DNA of 64,000 nt from an uncultured Clostridia bacterium (GTDB lineage: Bacteria > Bacillota > Clostridia > Christensenellales > CAG-917): assembly GCA_934233745.1 (NCBI GenBank), contig CAKQGN010000001.1, positions 258,621 to 322,620 of the forward strand, written 5' to 3'. A program made the translations under genes and the position numbers. Of the stretch, positions 5,960 to 38,281 are shown piece after piece; position 1 is the stretch's first letter, and each line of letters begins with the position of its first letter. A model generated the notes under the pieces. The model did no database searches and was not told the DNA's origin. It saw only the letters and a program-made list of their open reading frames with translations.

Positions 5960-6172
5960 AAAAAAATCCGCAATGCCAACAACATTGCGGATATAAAATA
6001 TCGCTCAACGTTGATAGCGCTCCACCTTTAAGGTGACAGTACAACGCATATTCTGCGTTGTCCCAAGAAAGATCGTTTCAGACCAAACAAGTCTTTCTTT
6101 CGGCGGATTTTCCTTTGCCACCGCGACGAAGTCTGCGCCGTCGGCTTATCATAAAATCCGCACCTCTATCGA
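5960..6172 (-). promoter_or_regulatory. lysine riboswitch (L-box) with intrinsic terminator
   Basis: The minus strand reads GATAGAGGTGCGG...GCCGAAAG...TGGGAC...ACTGTCACCTTAAAGGTGGAGCGCTATC. P1 is GATAG/CTATC. The conserved L-box blocks AGAGGUGCG, GCCGAA, CUGUCA and GGAG(A/C)GCU are present. It is followed by the terminator ATCCGCAATG-N7-CATTGCGGAT plus T7 (5961-5992). Confidence 0.8.
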
Positions 6173-6401
6173 GATGATGTACAAAGTTTAGCACGCCGCT
6201 TGCTTAAAGTCCAGCGTTTATGACAAGTTTTTTTCACAAAAAAATATTCTTTTGTCGCTTGCTTTCATGTCGTCATTGCAAAAGTGCGACGACATTGCAT
6301 TGCGACTTGACAAGAAAAGTAACGAAACAAAAATCACAAAAACGCTTGTCTATGTCGCAAAAATGATGTAATATAAGTGAGCAAAACAAATTTAACCTCA
6401 T

Positions 6402-23297: not shown

Positions 23298-23417
23298 ACG
23301 CACTATTGAGCGAATAACTGCGTCAACACCCTTTTGTTCACCCGTCACGTACACATCAGTACGTTAGGCGGGTTCGCAAAGGGGTGTTTCCTTGTTCTTC
23401 ATCTCAATAGCTCGTTT
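23296..23417 (+). repeat. structured stop-codon-proximal element, copy A
   Basis: Nested helices: AAACGCACTATTGAG/CTCAATAGCTCGTTT, AACACCCTTTTG/CAAAGGGGTGTT, ACCCG/CGGGT, ACGTAC/GTACGT. Starts inside the TAA of the ABC gene. Homologous to 29961-30086. Confidence 0.7.
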
Positions 23418-23698
23418 ATTTATAGTTAAAAAAGGGGCAAGTCCTTGTTTCTCATCTGTTTGCTTTCTGTTATTCCAACTCGAAAGTACGAGTAGCAAGG
23501 GTGTTTCCTTGTTCTTCATCTCAATATTACGTTTATTTACAGTTAAAAGAGGAACAAGCCCTTGTTTCTCATCTGTTTGCTTTTTGTTATTCCAACTCGA
23601 AAGTACGAGTAACAGGGGTGTTTCCTTGTTCTTCATCTCAATAGCGCGTTTATTTATAGTTAAAAGAGGAGCAAGCCCTTGTTTCTCATCTGTTTGCT
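23381..23698 (+). repeat. 117-bp tandem repeat, about 2.7 copies
   Basis: The marker TGTTTCC recurs at 23385, 23502 and 23619 (exact 117-nt period). Units are near-identical, and each contains a diverged half-repeat (GGGGTGTTTCCTTGTTCTTCATCT vs GGGGCAAGTCCTTGTTTCTCATCT). Confidence 0.9.
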
Positions 23699-25516: not shown

Positions 25517-25802
25517 AAGCAAACTCCTTTTAATGTTATTTTAATATTAGAAACAGTATAAACCACATAATCGCATTGCGCAATATTTTTTTTTGTTGCG
25601 CTGTCCATTTTCTCTTGCAACTGTTTTCGAATGGTGGTAAAATCAAATCAACATCTATGGAAGTAGTAGAAATTGCGCGTTAAGTGCCGTGCGAACGTGG
25701 GGTGTCGGCGGACGAAGAGCTTTGCTCGCGGTGCAATATTCACTCCGGACTTCACATATTACCGAAAGGTTTTTTTGCGAGTGCTTCCAAAGGAGGTGCT
25801 TT

Positions 25803-29961: not shown

Positions 29962-30086
29962 AACCGCGCTATTGAGCGAATAACTGTGTCAACACCCCTT
30001 GTCCATCAACTCACGTACGTTTATGTACGTTAGGGTTGCTGTTCAAGGGGTGTTTCCTTGTTCTTCATCTCAATATCGCGGTTTTT
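29961..30086 (+). repeat. structured stop-codon-proximal element, copy B
   Basis: 15/16-bp outer stem (AAACCGCGCTATTGAG/CTCAATATCGCGGTTT), 11-bp AACACCCCTTG/CAAGGGGTGTT, CAAC/GTTG, ACGTAC/GTACGT, then T5. Begins at the last base of the TAA stop. Confidence 0.75.
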
Positions 30087-30651
30087 AACTTCCAAACAAT
30101 GCATAAACAGCGTGAACTCTAATTGCAATTTCCCCTTTCCTCACGTGTTTTCCCTATCACCGTTCCCCCTCTGCGTGCCTTGAGGGAACCCACGGTGACC
30201 GCGTAGCGGGGGACAACACTCAGCACTCGCATAGATTGCTATCGTTCTCTTTTTATGTCACTCGTTCGCGGACGAAAAGAATCCAAACTCGTCCGCTCAC
30301 TTGTACTATACGTCAAGCTCGGCGTTCGCTTCCTCGCCGCCGTTGCGGCTCGTGTTCCGTCTTTTAAGTTGCACATTCCGTGTATAAGTACGCCTTGAAA
30401 GAGTGTTCGTTTATCCGCTTGCGCCGAAGGCGCATCCACCAAGCAGACAATCTTGCGAAACTGCGGCAGGAGTTTTTGTCCCTGCTCGAACTGATAGCAA
30501 AGATTTTCTGCGCGGTAGAAATTGCGAAAACAAGCGAGGTCAGTGGCAACCGCCACTGTGTTTGCGTTTCTATTTAGGGGATTCCCACGTCGCTTTGCTC
30601 CTCTGAATGACAGTTGGGGCGGTTGTCATAACCTAGGCGCCGTTTGAGCAA

Positions 30652-30726
30652 ATATCACTTGCGCAAAGCGCAAATATCACTGTTGCCATAGGCAACAATA
30701 TCACGCACACTTTGTGTGCATATCAC
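30652..30726 (-). repeat. GTGATAT-hairpin array, locus 1 (4 heptamers, 3 hairpins)
   Basis: Minus strand: GTGATAT GCACACAAAGTGTGC GTGATAT TGTTGCCTATGGCAACA GTGATAT TTGCGCTTTGCGCAA GTGATAT. Confidence 0.85.
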
Positions 30727-30752
30727 TTACATTGTCGTATAGCCCATTAGCT

Positions 30753-30781
30753 AAAAAAGGACGCTGTATGCGTCCTTTTTT
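30753..30781. terminator. bidirectional intrinsic terminator
   Basis: A6, AAGGACGC/GCGTCCTT stem, T-run; downstream of the minus-strand small genes. Confidence 0.85.
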
Positions 30782-30808: not shown

Positions 30809-30964
30809 TCAATGCGTCAAAATGTATTCTTCAAGTTGACTGAACCATACGAATGTCATCTCGTTTCCGTCGATTTTTACGGACAGAGGAAAGTGGCAAA
30901 AAGCAAACTCGTTGAGAGCTTGCTTTTTGTCTTGATAAATTTTGTTTTCAAATTCAATTATCAT
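30809..30964 (-). CDS. small hypothetical protein (51 aa)
   Basis: The ATG at 30964 lies 1 nt after the TGA of the upstream small membrane gene (TGATATG). No recognisable motif. Confidence 0.35.
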   Translation of the reverse strand: MIIEFENKIYQDKKQALNEFAFCHFPLSVKIDGNEMTFVWFSQLEEYILTH

Positions 30965-30965
30965 A

Positions 30966-31190
30966 TCAGCAGTTGAGAAGACGCCAAATCGATTTTTTGA
31001 CAATCATGAGTACGAGGTCAACAATCCACACGATGTTGAATCCGAAAATCAAACGGAGAAGTCCCGCAACGATTTTGCCTTCCTTAAATCTGGTGACTGC
31101 GCCGAGAATCCAGGAGGTGACGGGGATGATTGCAAGAATGAGACTCACGACATAGCCGAGTCCGAAATAATCGCCTTTACGTTTTGCCAT
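30966..31190 (-). CDS. small two-TM membrane protein (74 aa)
   Basis: Two clear hydrophobic helices separated by RFKEGK. No family assignment possible by eye. Confidence 0.55.
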   Translation of the reverse strand: MAKRKGDYFGLGYVVSLILAIIPVTSWILGAVTRFKEGKIVAGLLRLIFGFNIVWIVDLVLMIVKKSIWRLLNC

Positions 31191-37321: not shown

Positions 37322-38116
37322 ATGATAAAAGGCAAAAATATCGTCATAACCGGCGCAAACAGCGGTATCGGTCTTGAAACTCTCAAATTGCTCGCAAACG
37401 GCGACAACACGATTTTGGCAGTCGACCTGCGTACGGACAGAATCGAGGCTCTCAACAAAAAAAACATTTTCACGATGGTGTGCGACGTGTCCACAAAAGA
37501 GAATGTGGATTTGATTTTCAAAACCGCTGACGAAAAACTCGGCTCAATCGATATATTCTTTGCAAACGCGGGCTTCCCGTATTATGAAACAATGGACTAT
37601 GTCAACTGGGAGCGCATAGAGGACATCTTCAAAGTCAACGTGTTTTCGTCCATTTATACATATCAAAAATACGTCGAATATCTCGGCGGCAAGCAAGGTC
37701 AGATGGCAATCACGGTGTCGGCAATCGGCAAGCTCGCAATGCCCGGCTACACACTGTACAGCGCAAGCAAGTTTGCAATGCAAGGCTTCCAACAAGGTTT
37801 GCGCTACGAGCTTCCCAAAAACGTTGCCCTCACTTGCCTCTATCCGATAGCCACCGACACGGGCTTCTTCAAAAAAGCGGTCGAAGGGCAGGATGGCAAA
37901 GTCATTCGCGAGCGACCGTTCCCCGTGCAAAAACCTCAACACGTTGCCAAATGCATGGTGAGAGGCTTGGAACATAAACGCAAATTTGTCAACCCGTCCA
38001 AACTCTTCACGTTTGCGCAATTCCTCTTTGCAATCTGTCCGCCGATAAAATGGGTGTATCTTAAACTGGAAAAAAACAAGTTGGACAGGTTCGAGGCACA
38101 AAAGGCAAGCAAATAA
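37322..38116 (+). CDS. SDR-family oxidoreductase
   Basis: TGANSGIG cofactor motif and the YSASK catalytic motif. Start at the ATG at 37322. Confidence 0.85.
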   Translation: MIKGKNIVITGANSGIGLETLKLLANGDNTILAVDLRTDRIEALNKKNIFTMVCDVSTKENVDLIFKTADEKLGSIDIFFANAGFPYYETMDYVNWERIEDIFKVNVFSSIYTYQKYVEYLGGKQGQMAITVSAIGKLAMPGYTLYSASKFAMQGFQQGLRYELPKNVALTCLYPIATDTGFFKKAVEGQDGKVIRERPFPVQKPQHVAKCMVRGLEHKRKFVNPSKLFTFAQFLFAICPPIKWVYLKLEKNKLDRFEAQKASK

Positions 38117-38134
38117 ATATACGATGCGCAGCGA

Positions 38135-38225
38135 GTGATATTGTTGCCACGCAACAGTGATATTTTCGGATAGAACCAAAAGTGATATTGCGACTTTGTC
38201 GCAGTGATATTCGCACTTTGTGCGA
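38135..38225 (+). repeat. GTGATAT-hairpin array, locus 2 (4 heptamers, 4 hairpins)
   Basis: GTGATAT TGTTGCCACGCAACA GTGATAT TTTCGGATAGAACCAAAA GTGATAT TGCGACTTTGTCGCA GTGATAT TCGCACTTTGTGCGA. Lies between the SDR stop (38116) and the terminator (38245-38281). Confidence 0.85.
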
Positions 38226-38244
38226 GTTGTGGAATATTTCAAAT

Positions 38245-38281
38245 AAAAGTCCCGACTTTTTACGAGGTCGGGATTTTTTTA
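38245..38281 (+). terminator. intrinsic terminator
   Basis: TCCCGAC-N10-GTCGGGA followed by T7. Confidence 0.85.

Follow-up and report, generated by a model that had tools for sequence, protein, structure and literature searches.

Two heptamer-hairpin arrays from an uncultured Clostridia bacterium as candidate orphan copies of Gut-1, a dispersed repeat genetically linked to four-helix-bundle protein genes

The stretch of DNA analysed here (hereafter 'the window') comprises 64,000 nucleotides of contig CAKQGN010000001.1 (assembly GCA_934233745.1, positions 258,621 to 322,620) from an uncultured Clostridia bacterium (Christensenellales; CAG-917) that is known from metagenome assemblies alone. 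It carries two arrays in which copies of the heptamer GTGATAT alternate, with a period of 22-25 bp, with small hairpins (Table 1). Array 1 lies between the stop codon of a gene for a short-chain dehydrogenase (SDR) and the intrinsic terminator of that gene, and array 2 lies on the other strand. Both read as a first-pass annotation of this DNA had described them. The heptamer occurs 15 times in the window against 5.2 expected, a count reached in none of 100 shuffles, and pairs of heptamers at array-like spacing (heptamer-N13-20-heptamer) occur six times where none is expected. When a strict unit was defined as a heptamer, an end-anchored stem of at least 5 bp and a second heptamer, the window yielded five units and no further copies, and each of 20 shuffles yielded none. 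On folding, all four array strands are superior to their shuffled versions (z from -2.9 to -3.9).

The hairpins of array 1 have 6-bp stems, with 3-nt loops in three of them and a 6-nt loop in the second. Their spacers read TGTTGC-CAC-GCAACA, TTTCGG-ATAGAA-CCAAAA (with a single C.A mismatch), TGCGAC-TTT-GTCGCA and TCGCAC-TTT-GTGCGA. In array 2, no hairpin follows the fourth heptamer. The earlier statement that each spacer is a different hairpin holds for the sequences in general, which do vary, but the stem TGTTGC..GCAACA is common to both arrays, and stems are shared with copies in other genomes. The tail that closes array 1 also ends arrays of the same type at loci L158, L236, L233 and L284-L286.

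Table 1. The two arrays and the features next to them in the window
Feature	Position	Strand	Description	Basis
Array 1	38135..38225	+	four GTGATAT-plus-hairpin units	read directly
Array 1 heptamers (GTGATAT)	38135-41, 38157-63, 38182-88, 38204-10	+		
Array 1 hairpins	38142-56, 38164-81, 38189-203, 38211-25	+		
Degenerate leader unit, ATAT-ACGATGCGCAGCGA	38117..38134	+	follows the SDR stop codon and precedes the first perfect heptamer	
Array 1 tail, GTTGTGGAATATT	38226..38238	+	terminal degenerate heptamer-like element	
SDR intrinsic terminator (38245-38278 in the terminator scan)	38245..38281	+	outside the repeat	terminator scan
SDR gene	37322..38116	+	upstream of array 1	gene call; Pfam adh_short in L121
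Array 2	30652..30726	-	four GTGATAT with three hairpins between them	read directly
Array 2 heptamers	30720-26, 30698-704, 30674-80, 30652-58	-		
Array 2 hairpins	30705-19, 30681-97, 30659-73	-	all perfect	
Hairpin resembling a bidirectional terminator, A6-GGACGC-TGTAT-GCGTCC-T6	30753..30781	.	26 nt from the 5' end of array 2	read directly

Both arrays are very likely members of the Gut-1 family. A permissive Rfam scan returned a single family for the two of them, RF01706 (Gut-1 RNA). Array 2 aligns with the full model over 30647-30728 at 49.6 bits (E = 2.5e-9), which is 0.4 below the gathering score of 50. Array 1 reaches 28.9 bits (E = 4.6e-4) in a register one unit too far upstream, and its score is low because the model, built on three hairpins, slips onto the degenerate leader and treats it as an opening hairpin in which two pairs are non-canonical. 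Scores at related loci span 50-76 bits overall, including 50.3 bits for the homologous solo array at L236 and 52-76 bits for the 'B' arrays (defined below) at loci that encode a four-helix-bundle protein. Gut-1 was reported in 2010 from 43 instances, found in human gut metagenomes only and rated as likely RNA, and described in one sentence that names neither an organism nor a function (Weinberg et al. 2010, PMC2864571). Rfam classes the family as 'Gene; sRNA'. Like the published family, the window copies come from human gut sequence and contain at least three small hairpins with GUGAAAU or GUGAUAU as the linker between them. GUGAAAU is the linker of the model consensus, and GUGAUAU members are present in the original seed (a Stockholm alignment), where a forward array is directly followed by a reverse array. 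That seed also holds a tRNA-terminator-array locus that we encountered as L303. The window copies differ from Gut-1 in being solo arrays with longer stems (6-7 bp) and a GTTGTGG tail, in lacking the closing box pair (TATATTCGCC...GGCGAATATA), and in scoring at or below the gathering cut-off. The first-pass annotation had recognised no named motif here, a view that falls with these Rfam matches, the very outcome it had listed as counting against it.

A scan of genome collections for three exact GTGATAT heptamers, which is biased toward loci of exactly that kind, gave at least 120 loci. Among the matches listed, real arrays lie nearly all in uncultured gut and rumen Clostridia (Oscillospiraceae, Acutalibacteraceae, Ruminococcus and Christensenellaceae), and hits in other phyla are plain tandem repeats. 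The listed arrays thereby give Gut-1 a set of hosts. Of the 227 spacers in 86 good arrays, 211 (93%) fold into end-anchored stems with four or more Watson-Crick pairs. These palindromic spacers are 9-20 nt long, with stems mostly of 6-7 bp, loops of 3-4 nt and a closing pair that is usually T:A, and they include 193 distinct sequences, so that the heptamer is the invariant part. The proposed grammar of a constant heptamer and a hairpin of variable sequence but conserved fold therefore holds throughout the family, and copies elsewhere retain their hairpin potential, as had been predicted of genuine ones.

The common arrangement is a composite, in which an 'A' array (three to four repeats of GTGATAT plus a 6-7 bp hairpin) is followed by the box TATATTCGCC and then by a 'B' array in reverse, which ends in GGCGAATATA. 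The Rfam seed is this B array as read on its own strand. The two boxes that a B array carries, 5' and 3', co-vary by lineage, as TATATTCGCC/GGCGAATATA, AAATAAATCC/GGATTTATTTA or GATATGAACC/GGTTCATATC. The window arrays are of a simpler, solo type, and their tail and some of their stems are common to L158 (Christensenella sp. UBA7571), L236 and L233.

Only one gene recurs as a neighbour of the arrays. It encodes a protein of approximately 118 amino acids that matches PF05635 (23S_rRNA_IVP; E = 6e-28), TIGR02436 ('four helix bundle protein') and, weakly, bAvd. By this likeness, the array-linked protein belongs to the PF05635/TIGR02436 family and is a homologue of Avd, the accessory protein of diversity-generating retroelements (DGRs). 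The PF05635 family is named for open reading frames (ORFs) in rRNA intervening sequences (IVSs) that are bounded by inverted repeats. The gene abuts six of 82 elements, always 30-60 nt past the end of the reverse A array and on the B strand, and at array-linked loci the arrays lie 25-60 nt upstream of its start codon. Homologue searches returned at least 7,960 and 552 relatives; most of these, among the matches listed, are on contigs of approximately 1 kb, and the arrays probably break metagenome assemblies. All seven homologues that were looked up have a composite directly upstream (forward B, box, reverse A). A hidden Markov model (HMM) scan of all ORFs in 1.25 Mb of sequence identified 29 PF05635 genes in some 9-12 contexts, every one of them with adjacent arrays.

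The arrays at these loci evolve rapidly. At the TrmO locus the protein is identical among strains, yet the units differ in order and in number, from three to more than seven, and whole composites are sometimes tandemly duplicated. The layout there (L309-L314) is TrmO, arrays, four-helix-bundle gene, arrays, with a mixture of GTGATAT, GTGGTAT, GTTATAT and GCGGAT linkers. Arrays downstream of the gene, as at this locus, also occur in L321. Two further loci, L324 and L325 (64-69% identity), have the same architecture built on another heptamer, TCGATAT/ATATCGA. Proteins associated with the same heptamer are nearest relatives. These TCGATAT arrays are not caught by the Gut-1 model, which covers just part of the family. 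The Gut-1 family is thus genetically tied to PF05635/TIGR02436 genes, with fast turnover of units and one switch of heptamer.

The linked loci differ from DGR bAvd and rRNA-IVS cassettes in having no reverse transcriptase, template repeat or rRNA context. They differ from rRNA-IVS cassettes also in that both repeat arms are usually upstream of the gene in Clostridia, with hairpins between the heptamers. The closest solved structure is that of an uncharacterised protein (2RLD), an entry that contains five chains. No match to the four-helix-bundle protein was found among the PADLOC defence models, and we found no literature tying Gut-1 or these repeats to PF05635 genes, nor did literature searches with the heptamers return anything. 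At L321, a B array together with approximately 20 nt of its upstream flank is repeated near-identically on both sides of the reverse A array and the gene, a duplication that would be consistent with the gene having integrated through recombination at an array already in place.

Beyond the linked gene, Gut-1 arrays are very probably dispersed, dispensable and not specific to any gene. The 133 flanking ORFs make up 117 clusters, and the four possible orientations of the flanking genes are represented 16, 12, 12 and 11 times. For solo arrays, the upstream gene is co-oriented in 15 cases and anti-oriented in 14, and the corresponding figures for the downstream gene are 13 and 10. Many copies are located downstream of terminators or tRNA genes, and they tend to settle beside terminator hairpins at gene ends. 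Twelve of the 86 arrays are within 300 nt of a tRNA gene, with many anticodons represented and with tRNA, hairpin or terminator, and B array as the typical order. At L167 (2046-2853), for example, a composite directly follows an rRNA operon in the order 23S, tRNAs, 5S, tRNA-Asn, terminator and B array. In one strain, at L318 (approximately 1700-1800), a deletion extends from inside a tRNA gene to the third unit of the B array, and has removed the 3' end of the tRNA, the terminator and two units.

The history of array 1 is visible in 59 orthologous metagenomic SDR loci (51-98% protein identity), in which the slot between the stop codon and the terminator varies. Some alleles hold an intact array, including those of a clade with 88-89% identity in which hairpin 2 is a perfect stem, the leader unit is missing and the array begins 6 nt past the stop codon. 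Others are decayed, with mutated heptamers (GTAATAT, CTGATAT or TTGATAT), broken stems or internal deletions of units. In some, an unrelated element resembling a miniature inverted-repeat transposable element (MITE) interrupts the array, and in yet others the slot is empty, leaving approximately 20 nt between the stop codon and a terminator that is kept in alleles without the array. Array 1 is an insertion/deletion polymorphism at this site rather than a conserved part of the mRNA, and given that it is intact, decaying, interrupted or absent among these loci, it is therefore not a conserved regulator in the 3' untranslated region (UTR) of the SDR gene. Its position does agree with the 3'-UTR placement originally proposed. 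However, a general role of that kind does not follow, as solo arrays have no orientation bias and array 1 itself is lost in relatives. Gut-1 is in consequence better described as a dispersed, fast-evolving and dispensable repeat than as a gene-specific RNA.

Some other accounts were rejected. The AATATTA repeat seen in L284 and L286, a candidate target-site duplication, is missing from other alleles. The two arrays are not the ends of one 7.4-kb mobile element, since the interval carries polA, coaE and other housekeeping genes. Exact look-up of the polA product retrieved the same strain only (99.99-100% identity). The same look-up of the SDR product, made with the upstream TTG start rather than the later start at 37322, retrieved nothing, perhaps for that reason. 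A viral origin was likewise set aside: about four of 113 pattern chains in viral contigs resemble real arrays, and two phage records carry the linked protein.

More distant homologues of the four-helix-bundle protein (42-51% identity, on plasmid records) extend the association between protein and repeat. All seven have a short repeat of their own upstream and its reverse complement downstream, in a sample that is small (n = 7) and has no formal neighbouring-gene control. Nostoc flagelliforme has (TAATTCG)x4-5 upstream and (ACGAATT)x4 downstream, and Dolichospermum has the same heptamer and its reverse complement in the corresponding places. The pairs are a CCAGTGA-type repeat and (TCACTGG)x12 in Euhalothece, (GAGGTCG)x4 and (CGACCTC)x3 in Nostoc HK-01, and (TTAGTGA)x16 and copies of AATCACTAA in Bernardetia. 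Treponema has tens of GAAAG-type heptamers upstream and CTTTCC-type heptamers downstream, and Monoglobus has two copies of AATTAGGAATGAG upstream and the complement downstream. In Monoglobus pectinilyticus (L326; NZ_OY725736.1, 80876-81217) the four-helix-bundle ORF is unannotated and contains an internal stop codon. It separates hsdS from hsdR in a type I restriction-modification operon, with AATTAGGAATGAG and its complement on either side. With inverted repeats on both sides, these distant loci resemble the rRNA-IVS cassettes.

A preprint on Nostoc describes contiguous heptamer repeats that are scattered close to start codons; they influence expression, and their partner is 'yet to be identified'. 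Such cyanobacterial repeats, of the short tandemly repeated repetitive (STRR) type, share with Gut-1 a 7-nt unit and intergenic positions near gene starts, and heptamer arrays of this kind lie on both sides of four-helix-bundle genes in Nostoc, Dolichospermum and Euhalothece. They differ in having contiguous heptamers without hairpin spacers, in sequence and in phylum. We tentatively suggest, while judging it less likely than not, that Gut-1, cyanobacterial-type heptamers and 23S-IVP inverted repeats may be forms of one two-component system, composed of an oligomeric Avd-like protein and arrays of a lineage-specific 7-nt motif. The window arrays would then be trans sites for a protein encoded elsewhere in the genome. 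Orphan arrays would in that case spread as REPINs do around a RAYT gene, and if the link reflects binding, the cyanobacterial heptamer repeats could be explained as well.

For the window itself, the HMM scan found no four-helix-bundle gene in the 64 kb, and therefore the arrays there are orphans. On balance we lean toward regarding them as orphan copies of a clade-specific, dispersed and dispensable Gut-1 heptamer-hairpin repeat whose heptamers are candidate sites for the four-helix-bundle protein. In the mechanism we propose, the heptamers would be recognition sites of an oligomeric form of this protein, and the hairpins, as spacers, would hold the heptamers at even distances and leave them exposed. 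Orphan arrays would be dispersed copies that are still bound in trans, as repetitive extragenic palindromes (REPs) relate to a RAYT gene. The probability that the four-helix-bundle protein is indeed the partner of the arrays, a candidacy drawn from gene linkage and the heptamer switch, falls a little short of even in our estimation. It is nevertheless the first testable candidate binding partner for Gut-1, and the docking platform for a multimeric protein that the first-pass annotation had listed among possible roles is viable in this form, as far as sequence can suggest.

Several observations weigh against this reading. The HMM scan found no four-helix-bundle gene at the window-type loci L158, L232, L233 and L236 either. 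The protein link is shown for Oscillospirales-type composites and is only extrapolated to the window organism. Adjacency is not proof of binding, and the arrays might rather serve the gene as a leader, a regulatory region or an insertion target. The heptamer switch is a single evolutionary event, and GTGATAT spans two protein subgroups that are only about 53% identical. At the SDR slot, filled and empty alleles are unalignable and no insertion boundaries or target duplications are definable, so mobility is inferred from presence and absence alone. Finally, the strand signals contradict each other, as loops and wobbles favour the ATATCAC strand and RNA folding favours the GUGAUAU strand.

In one alternative explanation, RNA of the GUGAUAU strand would act in cis or as an sRNA, with stacked 3'-UTR hairpins stabilising the mRNA or docking an unrelated RNA-binding protein. 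The GUGAUAU strands fold at -34.3 and -33.9 kcal/mol and the opposite strands at -25.5 and -24.5, a gain of approximately 9 kcal/mol. In these folds U.G and A-U pairs join the UAU of each heptamer to the GUG of the following one, as in the Rfam model, and lengthen every stem. The Rfam class and the likely-RNA rating of the original paper point the same way, as do the position of array 1 between a stop codon and its terminator and the little room left for a promoter by four-helix-bundle-linked arrays, which are probably transcribed as a leader. However, no orientation preference relative to neighbouring genes is seen, and many copies lie past terminators, with array 1 lost or decayed in close relatives. 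The stems are also nearly all Watson-Crick, and the few internal mismatches on the GTGATAT strand are 11 A.C and 4 G.T; G.U wobbles therefore favour the ATATCAC strand. Among 87 triloops on the GTGATAT strand, 44 are T-N-C and three are G-N-A, and it is therefore the ATATCAC strand that has GAA, GCA and GTA triloops along with GNNA tetraloops. In composites, each strand bears one half of each kind, and their minimum-energy folds include some pairing between forward and reverse heptamers, or a box stem. Overall, we consider the RNA explanation to be unlikely.

The same loops can be read in favour of DNA. Very stable DNA mini-hairpins typically have loops of the C(GNA)G or C(GNNA)G kind, and 11 of the 25 GNNA loops are not GNRA, which suits such mini-hairpins better than RNA tetraloops. 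Folded as DNA, the two strands are equally good. A REP-like single-stranded DNA element, moved by an HUH enzyme (RAYT or IS200 type) that reads a hairpin and the adjacent heptamer, would account for these features and for a dispersed, intergenic, clade-specific repeat that often occurs as inverted pairs beside terminators and is present or absent among strains. We nonetheless consider it highly improbable. A tblastn search with queries of limited sensitivity detected neither an IS200 nor a RAYT homologue in the 1.18 Mb that surround the arrays, leaving the HUH/RAYT substrate raised by the first-pass annotation with no enzyme gene found nearby. Hairpins differ within one array, unlike the REPs of one RAYT, no target-site signature was found, and the sole recurrent neighbour is the 118-amino-acid helical protein, which has no known catalytic motif. 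Improbable as well, in our assessment, is an operator- or roadblock-like array on double-stranded DNA, in which a four-helix-bundle or helix-turn-helix protein would read heptamers about two turns apart and the palindromes would be a by-product or form cruciforms. The 22-25 bp period is indeed near two helical turns, orientation is independent of transcription, the stems are near-perfect palindromes, ATATCAC-N6-GTGATAT is a proven XRE-family operator in another phylum, and heptamer repeats influence promoter use in Nostoc. But this explanation accounts neither for hairpin spacers of differing sequence at a frequency of 93% nor for strand-asymmetric loops, and the contiguous heptamers of other phyla have a 7-bp period that is out of helical phase.

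Among known systems, the orphan-copy reading comes closest to REPIN-RAYT families, which likewise consist of dispersed short palindromic units at gene ends, with inverted clusters, clade-specific distribution, and orphans alongside a few gene-flanking copies. In Gut-1, however, the linked gene encodes a four-helix-bundle protein rather than an HUH transposase, it is the linker that is conserved and the hairpin that varies, and the units within an array are direct repeats. The contrast drawn by the first-pass annotation, that copies of REPs or of bacterial interspersed mosaic elements would share hairpin sequence, was overstated, as Gut-1 copies share stems by descent. Multi-site protein-docking RNAs of the TRAP, CsrB or RsmZ type are similar in presenting a short single-stranded motif at regular intervals between structured elements. 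The arrays differ from these in being orientation-independent and dispensable and in having no single regulated operon, and binding is putative here.

Other identities were tried and rejected. As the first-pass annotation had already argued, the arrays are neither CRISPR arrays nor iterons: the repeat is only 7 nt against roughly 23-50 nt in CRISPR arrays, the 9-20 nt spacers are palindromic, no cas genes were called near either array, the heptamer alone is conserved, and the neighbours are the SDR gene, a transporter gene and small ORFs rather than the replication initiator gene or origin expected beside iterons. A link to CRISPR through a 2023 terascale-clustering paper proved irrelevant, as that work deals with Cas adaptation modules. 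A flanking cluster of HTH_3 genes comprises three neighbours only, and the HigA2 operator ATATCAC-N6-GTGATAT has inverted half-sites and comes from another phylum; the two are kept as a weak lead. Resemblances of tails and stems to DnaA boxes (TGTGGATAA) or parS half-sites were noted by eye and are inconsistent across copies, and reading TGATATT as an extended -10 promoter element suits only some units.

The surroundings of array 2 contain several smaller features. On the - strand, two small ORFs of 74 and 51 amino acids (30809-31190), neither with a Pfam match, are followed by the terminator-like hairpin of Table 1 and then by the array. This hairpin does not appear in the terminator-scan list, and was probably missed since its A and T runs count as stem. 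The approximately 700 nt between a LOR-family gene and array 2 (29962-30650) contain no convincing gene and seem to gather small repeats; a 105-amino-acid ORF on the - strand (30239-30556) looks decayed from its translation. Just past the stop codon of the LOR-family gene is a copy (29971-30074) of the MITE-like element, which is approximately 104 bp long with the inverted ends ATTGAGCGAATAAC ... GTTCTTCATCTCAAT. Three tandem copies lie near 23.3-23.6 kb (approximately 23305-23642), and others occur in L245, L260, L263-L265, L270, L272 and L287, those in L263 and L264 being inside hairpin 1 of array 1. A third repeat, GGATTCCCACGTCGCTTTGCTCCTCTGAATGACAG, adjoins array 2 at 30579-30613, and its reverse-strand translation includes 'SFRGAKRRGNP'. 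Christensenella sp. L158 has a related copy just after its array, and there the orientation is reversed. Elsewhere in the window are a lysine riboswitch (6007-6176, - strand) and a tetrahydrofolate riboswitch (25660-25753, + strand), the latter directly upstream of a folate operon with folC-, folE-, folP- and folB/K-like genes.

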